Shown in pieces: positions 8,944 through 58,205 of a DNA stretch of 64,000 bases. This stretch comes from an uncultured delta proteobacterium. Lineage in GTDB: Bacteria; Myxococcota; Myxococcia; Myxococcales; Myxococcaceae. The notes below the pieces were generated by a model that was not told where the DNA came from, did no database searches, and worked only from the letters and a program-made list of their open reading frames with translations. The stretch lies in NCBI GenBank assembly GCA_963776345.1, contig CAVZMH010000015.1, positions 384,001 to 448,000 of the forward strand, read 5' to 3'. Both the position numbers and the translations under genes were made by a program. Each line of letters opens with the position of its first letter. Positions within the stretch are counted from its first letter, which is position 1.

Positions 8944-11090
8944 ATGCCCATCCGCCACCTTCCCCCGCTCCTGCTCGCGCTCGGCGTCGCCTGCGCCTCG
9001 ACGGAGCCGCGTCCGACGCCGCCAGCCCCGGCGCCCGATGCGGGAGCCACGCCCGCCCGGGCCGCCGCGGCTCCGACGCCAGGGTGCACGGCATCGACGT
9101 CGCGGGCATGGATCCGCTCGGTCGCCCCCGGCGACGACTTCTTCCTCTATGCCAACGGGACCTGGGTGAAGGACACCGAGATCCCCGCCGACCGGCCGCT
9201 GGGGAACGTTCAACATCCTCGCCGAGCAGTCGCGCCAGCGGACCCGCGAGCTGCTGGAGGCGGCCGCCAGCGGGAGCGCGCCCGCCGGCTCCGAGGAGCG
9301 CAAGGTCGGCGACTTCTACGCGAGCGTACCTGGACGAGGCCAGCGTCGAGGCCGGGGCATGGAGCCGCTCCGTCCGCAGCTCGCCGCCATCGCCGCGCTC
9401 CGGGACAAGACCGCGCTCGCCCGCGCGCTGGGGCAGGACCTGCGGACCGACGTGGACGCGCTGAACAACGCGGTACTTCCACACCGAGCCGGCTGTTCGG
9501 CTTCTGGGTCGCTCCCGACATGAACCCCCCACGGTCAACGGGGGCTACCTGTTCCAGGGCGGCCTGGGGATGCCCGACCGCGAGTACTACCTCTCCACCA
9601 ACCCCAAGATGGCCGCCATCCGCGACCGCTACCGGGCGCACATCGCGAAGGTCTTCGCCTGGCCGGCATCCCCGGCGGCGAGGAGCAGGCCCGGCGGATC
9701 TTCGATCTCGAGACGCGGATGGCGCGCGTGCACGGCACCCGCGCCGAGGCGCTCGAGGTTCGCCAGGCTTACAACCCGTGGAAGCGGACGAGTTCGGCAA
9801 GCGCGCGCCCGGGCCTCGACTGGGCGGCGTTCTTCCAGGGCGCCACCCTGCAGCAGCAGCCGATCATCGTCGTCTGGCAACCGACGGCCATCACCGGGCT
9901 GGCCGCCCTGGTGAAGCGGTGCCGCTCGCCACCTGGAAGGAGTGGCTGACCTTCCAACCGGTGGAGCGCTCAGGCTCGCCGCTCCTCTCGCGGGCCTTCG
10001 TGGACGAGAGCTTCGATTTCTACGGCAAGACCCTCAGCGGGACGCCCCAGCTGAGCGCGCGCTGGAAGCGCGCGTCGAGGCGGCAGCGAGCTCCGCCACC
10101 AGGCGGGCCCGCGAGGCTCGGGCATGGGCGACGCGGTGGGCAAGCTCTACGTCGCGCGCCACTTTCCGCCCTCGGCCAAGGCGAAGATGCAGGAGATGGT
10201 CCGAGCAGCATCATCGCCGCCTTCGACCGCCGAATCGAGGCGCTCGACTGGATGGCGCCGGCGACCAAGGCCCAGGCGCGGGAGAAGGTCCGCACCCTCT
10301 ACGTGGGCGTCGGCTACCCCGAGCGCTGGCAGGACGACTCGGGGCTCGAGGTGATCCCGGGGAGACCTGCTGGGCAACGTGCAGCGCGCCTCGCCTCTTC
10401 GACTACCGCCGCGACCTGGCGAAGCTGGGCAAGCCGGTCGACACGAGGGACTGGTGCATGAGCCCTCAGACGGTCAACGCGGTGAACCTGCCGCTGCAGA
10501 ACGCGCTCAACTTCCCCGCCGCCATCCTCGAGCCGCCATTCTTCGACCCGGCGGCGCCCGCCGCGTCCAACTACGGCGCGATCGGCACCGTCATCGGACA
10601 CGAGATCAGCCACAGCTTCGACGATCAGGGGGCGATGTTCGACGCGCAGGGGCGACTGCGGAACTGGTGGACCCCAGCCGACTTCGCGCAGTTCGAGGAG
10701 TCCGGCGGACGGCTGGTCACGCAGTACGACGAGTACCAGCCGTTCCCGGACATGCACGTCAACGGCAAGCAGACGCTGAGCGAGAACATCGCCGACGTCG
10801 CGGGAATCGCCGCCGCGCACGACGGCTGGCGGCGTCGCTCCAGGGGCAAGGAGCCCCCCGCGCTCTCCGGCTTCAGCGGCGAGCAGCAGTTCTTCCTGGC
10901 CTACGCCCAGAACTGGCGGAGCAAGATCCGCGAGCCCATGGCCCGGCAGCGGCTCGTCACCGACGGGCACGCGCCCGATCACTACCGGGCGGCAACGGTG
11001 CGGAACGTCGACGCCTGGTATTCCGCCTTCGCCGTGAAGCCAGGCCAGCAGCTGTACCTGTCGCCCGAGCAGCGGGTGCGCGTCTGGTGA
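8944..11090 (+). pseudogene. M13-family (neprilysin/PepO-like) metallopeptidase lipoprotein with many frameshifts (pseudogene or sequencing error)
   Basis: Lipobox LGVAC; VAPGDDFFLYANGTW, QGGLGMPDREYY, VGYPERW, VNAVN, GHEISHSFDDQG and ENIADVAG are spread across all three frames. Confidence 0.85.
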
Positions 11091-17112: not shown

Positions 17113-17493
17113 CTACTTGCCGGACTTCGCGGGCGCCGCGAGCCCGCGGATGTACGCCACCACCGACTTCACTTCCGCGGACGACAGCTTGGCCGCCGGC
17201 ATGTCCTTGGACAGTCCCTTGGCGGGACCGCCGCCGGTGATGACCGCCGTCAGGAACTCGTCGGTGCGCTTGGAGAGGGCGGCCTTGTCCGAGAAGTCCG
17301 CCGGCTTGGTGGTGTAGTACGCCGCGTCCTCCCCGTCGCCCTTCCCGGTGACGCCGTGGCAGCTCACGCAGTCGCGCTCGTAGATGGCCTTGCCCGCGGC
17401 GGCGTCGGGCTTCGCCGGCGCCGCAGCCAGCGACGCGACGGAGCCCAGGACCACCGCCGCTCCGGCAGCCCGCATCCAGTTCCGGACGTGCAT
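17113..17493 (-). CDS. Periplasmic monoheme cytochrome c
   Basis: Signal peptide, GKAIYERDCVSCHG (CxxCH), distal Met in KDMPA; GAGGAGG RBS. Confidence 0.9.
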   Translation of the reverse strand: MHVRNWMRAAGAAVVLGSVASLAAAPAKPDAAAGKAIYERDCVSCHGVTGKGDGEDAAYYTTKPADFSDKAALSKRTDEFLTAVITGGGPAKGLSKDMPAAKLSSAEVKSVVAYIRGLAAPAKSGK

Positions 17494-17576: not shown

Positions 17577-17987
17577 CTACGGCCTCGACGTGGGCTTCCC
17601 CGCGTCTTTCCAGCCCTTCAGCCCGGAGGCGAGCACGCTCACCCGGGTGTAGCCCGCCTCGACCGCCCGACCGGCGGCCGTGTGCGAGGACGTTCAAAGC
17701 TTGTTGGAGCAGTAGAAGACGAGCGGCGCGTTCCTGTCCGGAGGCAGCTCCTTCTTCACGTCGTAGTCATCGAACGAGCTCAGGAGCTTCGCCCCGGGGA
17801 TGACGCCGTTCTTCTCGCGGAACTCCGCGTCGTTGGCGTCCAGCACCGTCGCCGGGCTCCGCGGGTCCTTCTGCATCGACGCGAGCTCGGGCACCTCGAT
17901 GAAGCGGAACTTCTCCTTGGGCTCCGCGGCGAGGGCCAGGCCCGAGGCGAGCACCAGTTGGAGGGCGAGAATGGGGGAGCGCGTCAT
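17577..17987 (-). CDS. Secreted rhodanese-like protein, probable selenoprotein (UGA at 17694-17696 read as Sec); 136 aa
   Basis: Signal peptide; VLDAN...GVIPGA...LVFYCSNKL-UGA-TSSHTAAGRAVEAGYTRVSVLASGLKGWKDAGKP-TSRP-TAG. The rhodanese fold is completed only by reading through the UGA. Confidence 0.8.
17657..17693 (-). promoter_or_regulatory. Putative bacterial SECIS hairpin
   Basis: Directly 3' of the UGA: CCUC/GAGG lower stem, bulge, GGCCGCC/GGCGGUC upper stem, and a G-initiated loop GGUCG after a 21-nt spacer from the UGA. Confidence 0.65.
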
Positions 17988-19830: not shown

Positions 19831-21564
19831 GTGAGACGGGCATCAGCGCCTGCGGTCCCCCGGATCGCCGTCGTCCTGACCGTGGCCGGGTTCTCCGGCG
19901 CCGCGGGGGCCGCTCCGGCCCGGTGCGATCGGAGGCTGACCGCGAGGCCGTCGACCCTCCCCGCCGGTCTCCACCTGGCCCGCGTGCGCATTCCCGCAAG
20001 CTCTCCCGACATCCAGCTCCGCGCCAGCAGCGGAACGGCCGGGCTTCCGGTGAGCGCGGGCACCGGCGCCATGGTCGTGGAGTTCACGGCCGACCCTCGC
20101 TCGCCGCCGCTGGTGATCATCGCCGCGGTGGGCGGGAGCTTCTGCGGGTTCTCGGTCGTTCGCGTCGGTTCGGCAGACGCCGCAGTCGCCCCGGGCCCGG
20201 TGACCCTGGTGGTGAACGAGCCGTCCACGGCGCCGGGCGATGCGGACACCGAGGTGCGGGTGTACGTCTTCGCGGTCGACAAGCACGGCGCGCCCCGCCG
20301 CGGAACCGCCCCCGCCTTCCAGCCGGGTGCTGGATCCATCACCGGGGTCAAACCGCTCGGGCCTGGAGTCTGGCGGGGCCGATGGAAGGTCCCAGCCGGG
20401 AAGGCCGACGAAACCCGGATGGAGGTGGCCTTCGGGTCGGAGGCGCTCACCCGGGGAGCCGTCGCCAGGAGGGCCGGCCTGCCCGCGGCGCTGGAGATCG
20501 AGGAGGATCCGGCAAGCAACGCCAACGGCATTCCGGGGGCAGTCATCGTCCGGATCCGGGATTCCGCCGGCAACCTCACCGATGGAACCCTGAAGCTGGA
20601 GGCCGACGTGGCGACGATGGGGGTGCCGGTCCGCCTCGAGCGCGGGATCTACCGCGCGCCGCTGCTCGTGACGACGGAGACGCACCGGAAGTCGTTATTC
20701 GTCAGTGCGACCGCCAACCGGATCTTCGCCAGCGCCACGCTCGTCATCGCGTCCCCGCCTGCGGCGATGGTCACGGTTGGACCGCCCGGGCCGATCCTGG
20801 CCCCTGGGTCCTCTCAGGGGAGGCCGGTGGTCCTCCTCCCGGTCACGGTGGCCGACGCCTCTGGCAATCCGGTGAACGACGTCCCGGTGGGCTCGGCACA
20901 GCTCGGCGAGTTTCTCGATGCCCAGGTCGTGGGCCCGGGGTCCTGGACTCTGCCCTACCGTCCGCCGCGCGTGCTGGAGGACTCGGTCGATCACATCACT
21001 GTCCGGGCCGGCACCGTCTCCACCGACGCGGATCTTCATATCTCGGCCGATCGCTTCTCGGGCTCCGTCGGCCTGAAGGCGGGGATGGTGGTGGCGAACG
21101 GCGTCGGGCCAGGCGCCGGGGTCGAGGGCTCGGCGTGGGCGCCCGTCGGGGGTACCCAGCTGGGGCTGACGCTCGACCTGAGCTGGTGGACGCTGTCGCA
21201 GACGAGCGCCGCAACGGTCGGCGGCGCAACCTCGACCTATCACGCCAGGCAGAACTATCTCCCGGTGCTGCTCTCCTTCTCCTTGAGGAAGCTGTTCACC
21301 AAGCGGTGGCTGCTCTGGGCGAGCGCCGGCGGAGGGGTTGCCGTGGTCTGGAACAACTCGCAGTTCGGCGGCCAGACGTCGGTGAGCGAGAGCGGGCTTG
21401 CTCCGGCCGCCAGTGCCTCCGTCTCCGCCGGGCCGCGCCTGGGGCCGGGCGCGCCGTTCCTCGAGCTGCGGGGCACCTGGATCGGCGATGCGAAGCTCTC
21501 GACCCTGACCGGGTCCACCGTCAACTTCCTGGTCCTGCTCGGGTATCGGTTCGATGTCATCTAG
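19831..21564 (+). CDS. Secreted protein with Ig-like beta domains and probable C-terminal outer-membrane beta-barrel (start approximate)
   Basis: Signal-like N-terminus; invasin-like segments (VRIRDSAGN, VTVADASGNPV); last ~180 aa show alternating amphipathic strands ending VLLGYRFDVI. Confidence 0.6.
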   Translation: MRRASAPAVPRIAVVLTVAGFSGAAGAAPARCDRRLTARPSTLPAGLHLARVRIPASSPDIQLRASSGTAGLPVSAGTGAMVVEFTADPRSPPLVIIAAVGGSFCGFSVVRVGSADAAVAPGPVTLVVNEPSTAPGDADTEVRVYVFAVDKHGAPRRGTAPAFQPGAGSITGVKPLGPGVWRGRWKVPAGKADETRMEVAFGSEALTRGAVARRAGLPAALEIEEDPASNANGIPGAVIVRIRDSAGNLTDGTLKLEADVATMGVPVRLERGIYRAPLLVTTETHRKSLFVSATANRIFASATLVIASPPAAMVTVGPPGPILAPGSSQGRPVVLLPVTVADASGNPVNDVPVGSAQLGEFLDAQVVGPGSWTLPYRPPRVLEDSVDHITVRAGTVSTDADLHISADRFSGSVGLKAGMVVANGVGPGAGVEGSAWAPVGGTQLGLTLDLSWWTLSQTSAATVGGATSTYHARQNYLPVLLSFSLRKLFTKRWLLWASAGGGVAVVWNNSQFGGQTSVSESGLAPAASASVSAGPRLGPGAPFLELRGTWIGDAKLSTLTGSTVNFLVLLGYRFDVI

Positions 21565-24500
21565 GCGCCGAGCGTTTCTTGTCCTCGCGGTCCTCGCCCT
21601 GGCCCGGTGCGGAGGCTCCGCCTTTCCCAATCCAGCGCCCACTGCGGTGGTGCCGGACCGTGGCTTCACCGGAAACGCCACCCCGATCGTCATCCACGGC
21701 ACCGGGTTCTCCGTCCGAGCCGTCCAGCCAGCGTCCGGCGGTGCTCTCACGATCGACGAGACCTTCCAGGCCTGGTTGGGAAACGACGCGCTGCTCGACG
21801 TCCACGGGGTCGACGAGCAGACGCTCACCGCCACCGTCCCCCCGGGGCTGACCCCGGGTCTGAAGTCACTGCGCGTCCAGGGGCCGTTCGGCACCTCCGG
21901 GGAGCTGGCGCAGGCCTTCACCGTGGAGGGCACGGCGCTGGCGTCGATCACGCTGGACATCGCCGCCGCACCGGCCACCGTCAGCGAGGGCCAGTCGATC
22001 TCGGTCACGGTGACGGTGACGAACACCGGAAGCACGGCGGCCACCAACGCGGTTCCCGACACACCGACGGTGGCCGGGACCGGCACGGTGAGCTTGTCCA
22101 CCGGTCCGGCTCCGACCTCCATCGCCACCCTGGGGCCCGGCGACTCGGGGACCTTCACCTGGACCTACCTGGCGACCGGCGCCGGGACGCTGAGCTTCGC
22201 GGCGTCGGCCCATGCGACCGACACGTTCTCCGGGACGACCGTCAGCGCGTTCACCGACCCCACGAAGCCGGCGCAGGTCACGGTGCAGCACCCGGCCGCT
22301 CTCGCCGCGACCTTCCCCGCTTCCGGGTCCGCGGCCTTCGGCCAGGAGTTCCCGGTCACCATGACCGTCACCAGCGTGGGCGGAGCGGCGGTCGAGAACG
22401 TGATCCCCGCGGCGCCCACGGTGAATCCGGCCGGCCTGGTCACCCTGAAGACCGGGACGGACCGGTCCCGGCATCCGTCGCCTCGCTCAGCTCGGGCGAG
22501 AGCACCACCTTCACCTGGACCTTCGTGGCCGGCAACACGCCGGGCACGGTGCAGTTCTCTTCGAGCGCGGCCGGGAACGACGCCAACTCGGGCGCGGCGG
22601 TCGCTTCGGGCACCGCCACCTCTGGCAACTTCACCATCGGCGCGGCCGCGATCAATGCCACCCTCTCTGCCTCGCCGGCGACTGCCAGCATCGGTCAGGC
22701 AATCACCTTGACCCTGAAGCTGACCAACCCCGGGCTCGCCGACGTCCGCAACTTCACGGTGGGTACACCCAGCGTCAGCTCGACCGATGGCGCCAACGCC
22801 ACCCTGACCGCGGGCCCCTCTCCGGCACCGCCCGCGGTGCTCGCGGCGGGACAGACCGTCACCATCACCTGGACCTACAGTCCGGCGCTGATGCCGGGTC
22901 TCTCCTCGGGGCACCTCAGCTATCTGGTGACGGCGACCGGCGTCGACGCGTTCTCCGGCGGAACCATCGCCGCGCAGCCCACCGCCTCGTCCACCGTCCA
23001 GTCCCCGGCGGCGCTGACCGCGACCCTCACCCCGGAGCGCACGCCGCCGGTTCCCACCGGCCAGCCCTTCACGGTGAACACCGGCCAGGTCTTCACCATG
23101 AGCCTGGCGCTGAGCAACACCGGCGGGGCGGCGGCAGTGGCCGTGACCCCCACTCCGATCCCCGGCTGCGGGGCTCCATCTCCCGCCTCCGCCACCGTCA
23201 ACCCAGGCAGTCCGGTGGTCTTCGCCTACGCGAGCTGTTCCTCGGCCACGGCAGGGACCCTGACCCGCTCGGCGTCCGCATCCGGCACCGACGCGAACAA
23301 CCCGTCGCTGGTGGTGACCTCGAACACCGCGACCGCCACGGTGGTGGTGCAGACTCCGGCGGCCGTCGCGGCGACCGCGCTGACGACGACACCGGCAACC
23401 CTCACCGCCGGCCAGGGATTCACCGTCACCCTGACCCTGACCAAGTCCGGTTCGGCGGCGGCCAACGTCACCGGGGTGTCGCTCACCGGCACGACCTGCG
23501 CCACCGCTCCACCGATGCCGGTGAACGCCATCGGCACCACGTTGAACCTCACCTGGTCCGGGTGCACGGCGCCCTCGACGCCGCAGACGCTGACACTCGG
23601 GGGGTCCGCGGCCTGGCAGGACGCCAACACCGGCGTGACCCAGACCGCGGGACCGGCGACTGCCGCGGTCCAGGTGGTGAGCGGCGCGGAGGTGACTGCG
23701 ACCACCATCGCCACGACACCCCCGACGCTCAGCGCGGGACAGACGTTCACCATCACTCTCACCCTCGCGAAGTCGGGCGGGGCCACGGCGAACGTGACCG
23801 GCGCGTCGATGAACGACGCTTCGTCCTGCCAGACCGCGCCCACGTTCCCGATCAACAACATCCCGGCGACCCAGACCCTCGTCTGGAGCAACTGCACGGC
23901 GCCGGCGACGCCCGGACCGCTCGCGCTGGCTGGATCGGCGACCTGGGTGGACGCCAACGCTCCGACCGTCGTCAACACCACGAACCTGGCGGCGGCGGCG
24001 ATCACGGTTCAGGCGCCGGCTGCCTGGCGGCCAGCTTCCAGGCCCAGCCGCCAGCGACCGCGAGCGTCGGACAACCCCTGGCACTCACGGTGAATGTGAC
24101 GAACACCGCCGCCGCGGGCGGCGCCGCAGCGAACGGCGTGACTGTCACGCCCTCCACCACCGGGACGGCGACCGCCTCCTGTACCGCCGCGAGCCCGGGG
24201 GCCTCGAGCATCAATGCCGGCACGACCCTGCCATTCACCTTCACCTGTACGCCCCTCACCACGGGTACGCTCGCCGTCGTCGCCACGGTGAGCGGGACGG
24301 CAGCGAACAGCGGAAACGCGCTCACGGCCTCAGCCACGACCACGCCGGCGACGACGATCCAGGCGCCAGCCGGCCTGGCGGTGACCTTCGCGGCTCAGCC
24401 CCCGGCGTCGGTCAACGCGGGACAGCTCATCTCGCTGACCGCGAACGTCCGCAACACCGCACCGGCTGGGGGCGCGGCGGCGAATTCGGTCACGGTCACG

Positions 24501-24962
24501 CCGACCGTCAACACCGTGAGCGGGACGGCTGCCGCCACCTGCACTGCGGCGTCTCCCGGTGCCTCGACAATCAGCGCCAACTCCACCGTGGCTTTCAGCT
24601 TCGGTTGCACGACCTCGGGCGCTGGGACCCTCACTTTCACCGCGACTGCCAACGGCACCGCGGCCAACACCGGCACCGCGCTCGTCGCCGCGGCGACCAC
24701 CTCGCCGGCGACGACGGTCATCGCGCCGCTCGTCATCACGCCCGCGACGGCAAGGGTGCCCCATAACAAGAGCCGGACCTTCACCGCCAGCGGGGGGAGC
24801 GGGACTGGCTATACCTGGTCGCTGTCGACCAACGCCTCGGGCGGCTCCATCGACCCCGCCACCGGCGTCTACACGGCCGGGGCCACGCGCAACGTGACCG
24901 ACGTGGTGCGCGTGCAGGACTCCCTGGGGAACTCCGCGACCGCCAGCGTGACGGTGACGTAG
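21554..24962 (+). CDS. Large Thr/Ala-rich Ig-repeat surface lipoprotein (IPT/TIG-like + 8 'GQ' repeats + terminal Ig module); two frameshifts near 22458 and 24024
   Basis: LALARC lipobox-like signal; repeats of form P.T...GQ...VT.TV.N.G...FTWT; coding continues across ORFs 21554, 21607 and 23562 through single-base deletions. Confidence 0.75.
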
Positions 24963-25179: not shown

Positions 25180-25296
25180 GGTTGCGTTTCGCCGGCCTCG
25201 GACGTACGTCGGCGAGACGCGAGGGGGCCTCTCGTCTGGCAGGCGCGCCTGTGACCGCACCGTGACATGTGCCGCCCTCGGCTGGAGGCACGTCCC

Positions 25297-28089
25297 GTGG
25301 ACACCGTTCGCTCTCGCCGACCCTCGATTCCCGGCTTGCTCGTTCTGTGGCTGGCCCTGTCGACCACGCTGCTGCTCTCCGCGTGTTCGGGCTCGAGCAC
25401 GAAGACGCTCCAGTCGATCGGGGTGACTCCATCCAATCCCTCGCTCGGCGCCGGCACGACACTCCAGCTGACGGCGACCGGGACGTACTCCGACCAGTCC
25501 ACGCAGGACCTCACTCCCTCCGCCGCCTGGACGTCCTCGGATGCCGGCGTGGTCACCGTCTCCAGCGCCGGGCTGATCACCGCCGTCGCCCCCGGGTCCG
25601 CCACGGTCACCGCCACCAGCGGAAGCGTGGTTGGTTCGACCACCGTCACGGTGACCGCGGTGACGCTCCAGTCGATTGCACTGACCCCCGCCGCGCCCTC
25701 GATCGCCAAGGGGACCACGCAGCAGTTCACCGCCATGGGCAGCTTCTCCGACGGGAGCACTCAGAACCTCACCAGCCAGGCCACCTGGACCTCGTCCGCT
25801 CCCACCATCGCGACGGTCTCCAATGCCGCCGGATCGAAAGGACTCGGCACCGGCGTCGCGGTCGGGACGGCCACCATCAGCGCAGCACTGAACGGCGTCA
25901 CTGGCTCGACCACGCTGGCGGTGACCACCGCCACCCTGCAGTCCATCGGCGTCACTCCGGCCAACCCCTCGATCGCCAAGGGGACCACCCGGCAGTTCAC
26001 CGCCACCGGCACCTATTCAGACACCTCCACGCAGGACCTCACCACGCAGGTGACCTGGGCCTCCTCGGCGACCACCGTGGCCACCATCTCCAACGCCGCG
26101 GGCACCGCCGGGCGGGCCACCGCCATCGACGTGGGGCCGACGACCATCTCCGCCACGTTCGGAGGAACGACCGGCTCCACCGTCCTCACCGTGACCACGG
26201 CCGCCCTGCAGTCCATCGCCGTCACACCCCCCAACCCATCGGTGGCCAAGGGCAACACCGTGCAGTTCACCGCCACCGGGAGCTACTCCGACAACAGCAC
26301 CCACGACATCACCGGCCAGGTGACCTGGGCGTCCGCGACGACCTCCGTTGCCACCATCTCCAATGCCGCGGGGAGCCAGGGGCTGGCCAGCACGCTCGGG
26401 GTCGGGACCAGCACCATCTCCGCTTCGCTCGGAGGGACGACCGGCTCGACCGTCCTCACCGCGACCACGGCCACCCTGCAATCCATCGCCGTCACGCCGC
26501 CCAATCCATCGGCTGCCAAGGGCAGCACCCTGCAGTTCACCGCCACCGGCACCTATTCAGACACCTCGACGCAGGACCTCACCACGCAGGTGACCTGGAC
26601 CTCCGCGACGACCTCCGTGGCCAACATCTCCAATGCTGCCGGGTCGAAGGGCCTGGCCACCGCGGTGAACGTCGGAACCTCGACGGTCTCCGCCGCCCTC
26701 TCGGGAGTGACCGGATCCACCCTCCTTACCGTGACCGCGGCCACCCTGCAGGCCATCGCCGTCACGCCGACCAATCCCTCGGTCGCCAAGGGCAGCCCGG
26801 TACAATTCACTGCCACTGGCACGTTCTCGGACAACACCACTCAGGACATCACCAACCAGGTGACCTGGGCGTCCTCGGTGATCACCGTGGCCACCATCTC
26901 CAACGCTGCGGGGTCGAAGGGCCTGGCGAGCACGCTCCAGGTGGGAACCACCAGCATCTCCGCGGCGCTCTCGGGAAAGACCGGCGGATCGGCGCTGACC
27001 GTGACTGCGGCCACCCTCCAGTCGATCTCGGTCACCCCCGCCACTCCCAGTCGGCCGGCGCCGATCACCCTGGCCTTCACCGCCACCGGCATCTTCACCG
27101 ATGGAACGACCCAGGATCTGACGACCCAGGTCACGTGGTCGTCGTCCAGCCTGGGGGTGGCGACCATCTCCAACGCCGCGGGCTCGATCGGAGTGGCCAC
27201 TCCCGTTGCCCCTGGGACCACCACCATCCGCGCCACCCTGGGAACGGTAAGCGGATCGACGGTCTTCACCGTCACCTCCGCCACCCTGAACTCCATCGGC
27301 GTTACCCCGGCCAACCCCTCGATCGCCAAGGGCACCACCGAGCAGTTCACCGCCACCGGGAACTACTCGGACGGGAGCACCTTCGACCTCACCCAGACTG
27401 CCACCTGGGCCTCCTCGATGACCTCGGTGGCGACCATCTCCAATGCGGCGGGAACCAAGGGCAAGGCCAGTGCCGCCGGAGTCGGAACCACCTCCATCTC
27501 CGCCACCTTCGGTGGGAAGACTGGCTCGACCATCCTGACGGTGACTCCGGCCACCCTGGTGTCGCTCGCCGTGACCCCAACGGCTCCCTCCATCGCCCGT
27601 GGATTGACCCAGCAGTTCGTCGCCACCGGAACCTTCAGCGACGGCAGCACCCAGGTGTTGACCTCCACCGTCACCTGGTCGTCCAGCAACGCCGTGGTGG
27701 CGTCCATCGCCAACGTGGGCTCACCCGGCCTGGCCACCGGACTCTCGGTGGGGAGTTCCACCATCCAGGCCGCGGTGGGGACCATCACCGCTTCCGCGAC
27801 CCTCAAGGTGACCGACGCCATCCTGGTCTCGATCGCGGTGAGCCCGGACAATGTCACCATTCCCAGGACCACCACCGAGCAGTTCGCCGCGCTCGGAACC
27901 TTCAGCGACTCCGCAACGGCGGACCTCACCACGCAGGTGACCTGGAGCTCGTCGGACGACACCGTGATCGTCATCTCCAATGCCGCGCTCTCCCAGGGCC
28001 TTGCCACCGCCCTGGCAAAGGGCAACAACATCACCATCACCGCCACCAAGGGATCGGTGAGCGGGACGGCGACGGCCAAGGTCCCCTAG
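25297..28089 (+). CDS. Big_2 (bacterial Ig-like group 2) repeat lipoprotein, 10 tandem ~90-aa domains
   Basis: GGAGG RBS then GTG; lipobox LLSAC; ten LQSIxVTPxxP...QFTATGTxSD...DLTxQVTWxS repeats resembling Lig/intimin-type domains. Confidence 0.88.
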   Translation: MDTVRSRRPSIPGLLVLWLALSTTLLLSACSGSSTKTLQSIGVTPSNPSLGAGTTLQLTATGTYSDQSTQDLTPSAAWTSSDAGVVTVSSAGLITAVAPGSATVTATSGSVVGSTTVTVTAVTLQSIALTPAAPSIAKGTTQQFTAMGSFSDGSTQNLTSQATWTSSAPTIATVSNAAGSKGLGTGVAVGTATISAALNGVTGSTTLAVTTATLQSIGVTPANPSIAKGTTRQFTATGTYSDTSTQDLTTQVTWASSATTVATISNAAGTAGRATAIDVGPTTISATFGGTTGSTVLTVTTAALQSIAVTPPNPSVAKGNTVQFTATGSYSDNSTHDITGQVTWASATTSVATISNAAGSQGLASTLGVGTSTISASLGGTTGSTVLTATTATLQSIAVTPPNPSAAKGSTLQFTATGTYSDTSTQDLTTQVTWTSATTSVANISNAAGSKGLATAVNVGTSTVSAALSGVTGSTLLTVTAATLQAIAVTPTNPSVAKGSPVQFTATGTFSDNTTQDITNQVTWASSVITVATISNAAGSKGLASTLQVGTTSISAALSGKTGGSALTVTAATLQSISVTPATPSRPAPITLAFTATGIFTDGTTQDLTTQVTWSSSSLGVATISNAAGSIGVATPVAPGTTTIRATLGTVSGSTVFTVTSATLNSIGVTPANPSIAKGTTEQFTATGNYSDGSTFDLTQTATWASSMTSVATISNAAGTKGKASAAGVGTTSISATFGGKTGSTILTVTPATLVSLAVTPTAPSIARGLTQQFVATGTFSDGSTQVLTSTVTWSSSNAVVASIANVGSPGLATGLSVGSSTIQAAVGTITASATLKVTDAILVSIAVSPDNVTIPRTTTEQFAALGTFSDSATADLTTQVTWSSSDDTVIVISNAALSQGLATALAKGNNITITATKGSVSGTATAKVP

Positions 28090-57482: not shown

Positions 57483-58205
57483 ATGACCTTGGAAGAGCTG
57501 TCCCACTACCTGCACCTCGGGGGCGCGACCCTGGCGGTGATCCTCGCCTCCTCGGTGCTCGCCATTGGCGTGGCCGTGGAGCGGTGGATCGCGCTCTGGA
57601 ACATGTCCGCCGACTCCCGGGCGCTGACCGACGCCGTGGGCAGGCACCTCCTGCGGGGCGACCTCTCGGCCGCCCGGGGGACCGTGGAGCGATCGGACAG
57701 CCTGCTGTCCGACGTGTACCGGGTGGCATTCGAGCGGCTGGAGCGGAGCCGGACGGTGACCCCCGGGGTCGAGGCCGCGGTGGAGCGCGAGCGGGCGCAG
57801 CTCGGGCTCCGGATGAAGAAGAACCTCTGGATCCTCGGCACCATCGGCGCGACCACGCCCTTCGTCGGCCTCTTCGGCACCGTGGCCGGCATCATGCGGA
57901 GCTTCCGGGAGCTGGGCCTGGACGTGGAGGCCGGCGGCACCGGCGGCACCGCGGCGGTGATGACCGGCATCTCCGAGGCGCTGGTGGCCACGGCGGCGGG
58001 CATCCTGGTGGCGGTCGAGGCGGTCATCCTCTTCAACTACTTCCAGTCGCGCATCGCCCGGCTGATCATCGAGATGCGGCTGCAGATCGAGGAGTTCGTG
58101 GAGCTCCTGCGCGAGCGCCCCCCCGGCCCGCCCCATCCCGAGCTGGCCCCGGTGACCAGCCCCGCCGCCCCGCTGCCCGCCGTCACCACGGCCGGGGCGA
58201 ACTAG
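57483..58205 (+). CDS. MotA/TolQ/ExbB proton-channel protein
   Basis: LGTIGATTPFVGLFGTVAGIM...GISEALVATAAG. Confidence 0.93.
   Translation: MTLEELSHYLHLGGATLAVILASSVLAIGVAVERWIALWNMSADSRALTDAVGRHLLRGDLSAARGTVERSDSLLSDVYRVAFERLERSRTVTPGVEAAVERERAQLGLRMKKNLWILGTIGATTPFVGLFGTVAGIMRSFRELGLDVEAGGTGGTAAVMTGISEALVATAAGILVAVEAVILFNYFQSRIARLIIEMRLQIEEFVELLRERPPGPPHPELAPVTSPAAPLPAVTTAGAN

Follow-up and report, generated by a model that had tools for sequence, protein, structure and literature searches.

Gene structure and the probable selenocysteine codon

In the window analysed here (the whole stretch of 64,000 nucleotides), a minus-strand gene for a probably exported, single-domain rhodanese of 136 residues contains an in-frame UGA that is very probably read as selenocysteine (Sec). 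Sec decoding is supported by the open frame beyond the UGA, a protein domain that extends across it, the Sec machinery of the genome, the exchange of TGA and Cys codons among homologs, a conserved SECIS element and selection on the downstream codons. Judged by its motif, the Sec site is not new but belongs to an already catalogued form of rhodanese selenoprotein (form 1, see below), since its representative WP_010941598.1, which we take to be from Geobacter sulfurreducens, has the same C-x4-U-x2-S motif. What differs in comparison to this form is the stand-alone single domain with a predicted signal peptide and a family tree with at least six switches between Sec and Cys.

The frame runs in the window sequence from an ATG at 17987 to a TAG ending at 17577 and contains a single in-frame TGA (17696-17694, minus strand, codon 98), which is followed by 38 sense codons. 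The third-position GC content amounts to 0.95 before as well as after the TGA. An initial annotation of this DNA had described the frame as open for 38 sense codons up to the TAG, and its coordinates were exact. It had also proposed that read-through supplies the C-terminus of a rhodanese, and this part indeed corresponds to the second half of the Pfam Rhodanese domain (PF00581, residues 34-128; 44.7 bits versus a cut-off of 22.2, E 1.9e-11). The gene is very likely intact and cut short by gene finders. The following features were assigned:

17577..17987, minus strand: full gene, 136 amino acids with UGA read as Sec; putative exported single-domain rhodanese-fold selenoprotein (frame, Pfam, selection, fold)
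17928..17987, minus strand: signal-peptide-like N-terminus, residues 1-20, with a basic residue, a hydrophobic core and A-x-A at its end; export across the inner membrane is predicted
17604..17888, minus strand: rhodanese domain PF00581, residues 34-128, across the TGA (Pfam match and fold matches)
17709..17711, minus strand: Cys93 (TGC), which occupies the canonical catalytic position of rhodaneses and is invariant in the homolog alignment
17694..17696, minus strand: TGA, predicted Sec98, five residues after Cys93 (C-x4-U-x2-S; homolog column, independent contigs)
17660..17680, minus strand: SECIS upper stem-loop; 8-bp stem, GGUCG loop that begins 21 nt past the UGA (conservation)
17113..17493, minus strand: downstream gene for a mono-haem cytochrome c, on the same strand and 83 nt past the rhodanese stop

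The selenocysteine column in homologs

Altogether 105 loci were examined, and after 10 duplicates had been dropped 95 non-duplicate related loci remained. The loop type of the protein studied here occurred in 76 of them, with TGA at the Sec column in 34 and TGC or TGT in 42; the remaining 19 were other rhodanese types (14 with a canonical Arg loop and five with CxU). TAA, TAG or TGG was found at this column in none of the 95 loci. Among the best 30 loci, from 61 genomes, 19 had TGA and 11 had TGC, and all 10 same-genus orthologs found possessed the TGA together with the 38 downstream codons. A Sec copy and a Cys copy occurred together in eight genomes. In a broader sample (the 150 best of 323 cluster representatives, E ≤ 1e-30), 175 of 188 motif instances had Cys and 13 had Arg. 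The matches of a profile search were distributed over 110 of 301 genomes of the phylum, and 59 of 138 profile matches contained one in-frame TGA by a hand count in which the position of the codon was mostly unchecked.

Both loop positions, Cys93 and residue 98, were invariant across the family as Cys and as Cys or Sec, respectively. The proposal of the initial annotation, a CxxxxU motif with Sec in place of the second Cys, thus fits a column that holds only TGA or Cys within this loop type, and no Trp was seen there among the Cys-type homologs. Decoding of the TGA as Trp or Arg was rejected for this loop type, the latter because the 14 Arg loci belong to the canonical C-x4-R type of rhodanese, whose loop is shorter.

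Truncation by automated annotation had likewise been predicted, and it is widespread: among 120 database homologs listed, 109 stop exactly before the Sec column, one further homolog with a variant motif also ends before it, and all 10 that continue past the column have Cys. The 97-residue forms of the rhodanese listed in databases reflect a systematic annotation error, which is corrected here, as those 109 entries are stumps of this 97-residue type without half of the active site region.

For the family tree, 75 proteins were used after one fragment had been left out, and the Sec column was masked together with seven residues constrained by the SECIS. The tree needs 10 changes between Sec and Cys, of which at least six are forced by well-supported branches; with only 98 columns, it does not give the direction of the switches.

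Beside the conserved loop, a conserved His after the loop was found in most Sec members, and five Sec members (L090, L091, L093, L096 and L097) possess a third Cys in the motif C-x4-U-x2-C-H. A Cys relative of this subgroup (L094) reads C-x-x-C-H. In an exported protein, the U-x-x-C-H motif resembles a haem c attachment site, but a third redox-active Cys would be more likely.

SECIS hairpin

The upper stem comprises 8 bp (17680-17673 pairing with 17667-17660) and encloses the loop GGUCG at 17672-17668, which begins 21 nt past the UGA. The hairpin with its GGUCG loop and its spacer of 21 nt had been recognized in the initial annotation. The CCUC/GAGG base named there is not the lower stem of minimum energy, and homologs vary in this lower part. 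A published model of bacterial SECIS elements (available text of PMC13188914) comprises a loop of 3-9 nt with a G in the first two loop positions, a stem of 4-16 bp, a spacer of 16-37 nt and an MFE ≤ -7.5. With a loop of 5 nt, a stem of 8 bp, a spacer of 21 nt and -24.2 kcal/mol, the present hairpin lies within this model, as evaluated with a custom script and not with bSECISearch.

The stability of the single sequence was not above chance at 72% GC (z = -0.93, -0.23, -0.71, +0.39 and -1.89 in five windows versus shuffles). Hairpin stability was rejected as evidence on these z values between -1.9 and +0.4, and the case for Sec therefore had to rest on comparison. A genome-wide scan with a similar rule found such a hairpin at 40 of 654 coding-like in-frame TGAs. 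It was too blunt, as it recovered two of the four Sec genes known in this genome and missed selD and fdhA.

The hairpin counts as evidence because of its conservation rather than its energy. When coded leniently and with four window lengths, the SECIS model was satisfied by 32 of 34 TGA loci versus 12 of 42 Cys loci, and a hairpin in the same register (loop start 20-22 nt past the codon) was present in 30 of 34 versus 1 of 42. A pair between the third positions of two Ala codons was kept in 33 of 34 TGA loci but in only nine of 42 Cys loci. In the 33 distinct TGA rows 93.5% of the cells pair, in comparison to ≤ 55% for slid structures; two-sided changes occurred at four of seven pairs, and the covariation score was reached by none of 500 shuffles, although the relatedness of the sequences inflates these pairing and covariation figures. 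At the codon in the SECIS loop, Sec members encode Gly or Arg in most cases and Cys members usually Glu or Lys, a case of an RNA signal shaping a protein.

Selection, sequence verification and expression

In 11 same-genus sequences, dN was 0.077 and dS 0.65 (dN/dS 0.12) for codons +14 to +38, and dN/dS was 0.25 for the 60 codons upstream of the TGA. Purifying selection acts on the codons that follow the TGA. Over the SECIS codons +1 to +13, dS falls to 0.14, in comparison to 0.55 and 0.65 in the two flanking parts, which is the pattern that an overlapping RNA signal should produce.

The TGA codon was covered by contigs in all four runs from four studies, with no other letter listed, and unchanged in three of four further runs; these are contigs rather than raw reads, and one run may be the source sample. 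TGC or TGT, which by the initial annotation would have refuted the reading as Sec, did not occur in these independent assemblies. A sequencing error or a pseudogene was rejected on the TGA in 10 of 10 same-genus orthologs, the purifying selection and the independent contigs. In the metatranscriptome run X19, one contig with a depth of 2.4 lay over the TGA codon, and RNA run X20 had no coverage of the rhodanese gene; the low-depth contig does not amount to evidence of transcription.

Elsewhere in the window, a gene with an HExxH motif for a peptidase-like protein, presumably of M13 type (8944-11090, plus strand), was split over several frames, which suggests indel errors in the assembly.

Selenocysteine machinery of the host genome

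The genome of this soil bacterium (5.1 Mb, about 72% GC) contains selA (E 1e-124), selB (score above the cut-off), selD, which itself possesses an in-frame TGA, and one tRNA-Sec with the anticodon TCA, so that the machinery asked for in the initial annotation, including SelC, was found completely. It also contains a gene for a formate dehydrogenase alpha subunit (fdhA) with an in-frame TGA, and its tRNA-Trp genes have the normal anticodon CCA.

The 33 TGA loci that could be assigned to genomes belong to 31 genomes, of which 27 have both selA and tRNA-Sec and four have one of the two. Neither gene was detected in 11 of the 61 sampled genomes, and four of these 11 carry the rhodanese family at five loci, all with TGC. 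The confinement of TGA loci to genomes with selA or tRNA-Sec agrees with Sec decoding. It is a weak test, because most genomes have the machinery anyway and related genomes are not independent; with one or both genes in 50 of 61 genomes, the link between codon and machinery hangs on the four family-bearing genomes with neither.

A second hidden selenoprotein was noticed in the same genome, in which a C-x-U rhodanese is joined to a membrane domain of DedA/VTT type (locus L128; G000:C2, TGA at 57738, minus strand), with a hairpin about 21 nt past the TGA. Similar CxU loci are present in genomes G002, G006, G036, G048 and G049. Loops containing G were found 19-21 nt past the TGA in fdhA and in this second rhodanese gene, and no clear hairpin was detected at this distance past the TGA of selD.

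Fold and localization of the protein

The structure model, calculated with Cys in place of Sec, showed a mean pLDDT of 89, with low values before residue ~25. A helix (100-110), a strand (116-119) and a second helix (122-128) are all encoded past the TGA, so that the 97-residue stump lacks core elements of the modelled fold. All fold matches listed were rhodanese-like, the best with a TM of about 0.67-0.69, and included a polysulfide-sulfur transferase (1qxn, E 2e-5).

According to hydrophobicity heuristics, a hydrophobic N-terminal stretch is present in 54 of 54 aligned members and a lipobox-like motif in 25 of 54. The protein is likely to be exported, and a periplasmic location is more likely than secretion, as which the initial annotation had described it. 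One C-x4-U rhodanese of about 115 amino acids (L100, G028:C315) has no signal-peptide-like start and is therefore probably a cytoplasmic version. The mature domain of ~116 residues, with natural Cys and Sec versions that sometimes occur in one genome, offers an easy test of the chemistry of rhodanese selenoproteins.

Relation to known rhodanese selenoproteins

Rhodanese-type selenoproteins, which the initial annotation named as existing, are catalogued in Table 1 of PMC13188914 (2026) in five forms, all as predicted. Form 1 comprises rhodanese-like domain-containing proteins with the motif UxxS, with WP_010941598.1 as the representative, and its Sec site dates back to 2005 by the reference given there. 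In the supplement of PMC12013277, as compared by eye, WP_010941598.1 shows FYC-x4-U-x2-S with the same loop and Sec column as the protein studied here, six further distinct entries also have YC-x4-U, and most of these examples possess signal-peptide-like starts, as here. A multi-domain Cys relative aligns its second Cys on the TGA.

In contrast to the single domain of 136 amino acids found here, the form 1 examples in this supplement are multi-domain proteins of about 250-480 amino acids (423 in WP_010941598.1). Such domains share about 30-40% identity with the present protein; their D-x-R corresponds to D-A-N here, and G-V-I-P-G-A takes the place of what is mostly H-x-P in them. Furthermore, the examples come from other bacteria, whereas the single-domain subfamily is centred on Myxococcota. 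The protein thus shares the PF00581 domain and UxxS (U-T-S-S) with form 1 but not the multi-domain architecture of the representative, which the available text of PMC13188914 does not state as defining the form. Longer fused forms gave three matches, all weak, among 8000 scored candidates.

BSepDB, as far as its description is available, gathers its Sec/TGA pairs in a tblastn search (E ≤ 0.01) that is followed by a second round, and may therefore already hold single-domain C-x4-U genes. In a stand-in tblastn with two queries, one (P0122) found the gene with E 3e-8 and a Cys on the TGA, and the other (P0123) gave no hit at E ≤ 0.01.

TsoB, listed in PMC13188914 as form 5 (similar to a fusion of rhodanese and DsbD; UxxxxU, NCBIfam NF045694), has by this listing the same five-residue spacing of two chalcogen residues. 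Its model was the best NCBIfam match and was matched by 54 of 54 aligned members; membership was nevertheless rejected, as the protein reached 38.6 bits versus a cut-off of 805, has no DsbD part and possesses one Sec instead of two. The form 3 proteins with LYCAU (NF041203, CxU) are likewise small, start in a signal-peptide-like manner and have their Sec within the active-site loop, but there the Sec follows two residues after the Cys instead of five, and membership was rejected (30.8 bits versus a cut-off of 115). PQQ_CXXCW (TIGR03865) was rejected with 31.5 bits versus 128. No NCBIfam model scored above its cut-off, and no match to a PspE or GlpE family was obtained. The loops of classical rhodaneses read CRSG/AxR and form a cationic pocket for thiosulfate, which the final Arg helps to bind (accessible part of PMC10925157); the present loop differs, with a two-residue insertion and Sec at its end. 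The available parts of PMC9312934, PMC1976440, PMC1794560, PMC5877670 and PMC13510729 were also consulted.

A literature search, for which subscription journals were mostly out of reach, yielded no publication about single-domain rhodaneses with C-x4-U or their activity and no assay of a rhodanese selenoprotein or of any C-x4-C/U rhodanese.

E. coli PspE and the Wolinella polysulfide-sulfur transferase (1qxn) resemble the protein, which is itself predicted to be exported, as exported single domains with the catalytic Cys at the loop start; to our knowledge, both have this one catalytic Cys and no second Cys or Sec in the loop. It is possible, though we would sooner doubt than assert it, that the stand-alone exported C-x4-U rhodaneses are an uncatalogued, widespread subfamily of Myxococcota, which would represent the minimal module of form 1 and TsoB and act as rhodanese-fold thiol-selenol oxidoreductases rather than as classical sulfurtransferases. 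If so, the many Sec/Cys switches and the eight genomes with both copies would provide a small natural test case for the benefit of selenium in the periplasm. To a specialist, the finding is expected rather than surprising.

Proposed function

Decoding of Sec in bacteria by SelB and a hairpin is established, and in rhodaneses the persulfide forms on the Cys at the loop start. For the present gene, SelB with Sec-tRNA would bind the GGUCG hairpin downstream of the UGA and insert Sec; if selenium is absent, translation would stop at the UGA and leave the 97-residue stump that misses the three core elements. Cys93, at the usual persulfide-forming position, may take sulfur from polysulfide, thiosulfate or a persulfidated protein of the envelope. 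Sec98, which would stand where classical thiosulfate sulfurtransferases have the loop-ending Arg, could then attack the Cys93 persulfide and release the sulfur or pass it on, and the resulting Cys-Sec selenenylsulfide would be re-reduced by a DsbD-type pathway. A gene for a protein with a DsbD-type membrane domain and a thioredoxin-like domain is present on another contig than the rhodanese (G000:C13, L041:1498-2880, minus strand). Its product matches the C-terminal two-thirds of TsoB with about 300 bits and is a candidate for the reductant. This role of Cys93 and Sec98 as a periplasmic redox pair handling sulfane sulfur is the one we tentatively favour, at slightly less than even confidence. 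Its support is indirect and comes from the invariance of both loop positions, from the listing of TsoB with Sec at both of them and a DsbD-like fusion part, and from the unlinked DsbD-type gene.

It is unlikely that the selenoprotein is a general periplasmic reductase of disulfides or sulfenic acids, whose Cys-x4-Sec loop would serve like the active site of a thioredoxin on protein substrates, with no role in sulfane sulfur metabolism. The invariance of both loop residues, the loop without the canonical final Arg, the joining of a rhodanese domain to a DsbD-like part in TsoB and the presence of pdxA and/or a SurA-type chaperone gene beside nine Cys-type loci are consistent with such a reductase. 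Cys93 at the rhodanese persulfide position and the intact rhodanese fold argue against it; moreover, the order surA-pdxA is common among housekeeping genes and was not seen next to those Sec copies that were examined. In favour of a general reductase, predicted selenoproteins of bacteria are for the most part regarded as thiol-type oxidoreductases (available text of PMC13188914).

A classical PspE-like thiosulfate sulfurtransferase that works via Cys93 alone, with Sec98 only tuning or protecting the site, appears quite improbable. PspE is a periplasmic single-domain protein that converts thiosulfate to sulfane sulfur via an enzyme persulfide (accessible parts of PMC2593051 and PMC10215317), and the polysulfide-sulfur transferase among the fold matches points in the same direction. 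However, the loop has two more residues than those of solved rhodaneses and does not end in Arg, and where a family allows just Cys or Sec, a catalytic residue is more likely than an auxiliary one.

Binding or reduction of a metal or metalloid (arsenate, selenite, mercury or copper) by the Cys/Sec pair in the periplasm must be considered very doubtful. Rhodanese-fold arsenate reductases exist, and the conserved His past the loop in most Sec members as well as the third Cys in five would suit this function; yet no recurrent metal-resistance operon was seen, and an ArsA-type ATPase and a copper-binding protein occurred once each among the 150 neighbouring ORFs. Finally, it is highly improbable that the TGA is a true stop (pseudogene, assembly error or 97-residue product) or is decoded as Trp or Cys along a route without SECIS: the frame breaks in the peptidase-like ORFs, the 97-residue database forms and the hairpin that is not significant alone would speak for it, but TGA is kept in all same-genus orthologs found and across the order, TAA and TAG are absent from the column in 95 loci, the downstream codons are under purifying selection, independent contigs agree, and neither the Trp-free column of Cys-type homologs nor the normal tRNA-Trp anticodon fits.

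Gene neighbourhood and further observations

A cytochrome c gene was adjacent to the rhodanese gene in 11 of 11 same-genus loci and was not seen beside the other loci. The 150 neighbouring ORFs from 45 loci (of 152 selected by a GC-frame heuristic, long ones cut to 450 amino acids) showed scattered functions, and among them neither a conserved sulfur-metabolism neighbourhood nor an operon shared beyond the genus was detected.

A scan for sigma-70 consensus promoters gave no sites. An element resembling TTGCC...TAGCA shortly upstream of the start (window 18029-17997, minus strand) and the element CAGGCTAGGCT just past the stop (window 17564-17553, minus strand) recur in most same-genus loci; these are possible promoters of the rhodanese and cytochrome c genes, respectively.

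A gene for an OPT-family transporter lies near the rhodanese in L054, L091, L094 and L096, one of which is outside Myxococcota. The Cys copies L026 and L086 are located beside an FGE-sulfatase/DinB protein, presumably EgtB-like, L023 beside a tandem rhodanese, and L092 beside a rhodanese and a disulfide oxidoreductase; these neighbours are scattered sulfur-related genes. The window also encodes two long Thr/Ala-rich proteins with repeated Ig-like units (21554-24962 and 25267-28089, plus strand), which are likely to be surface proteins.
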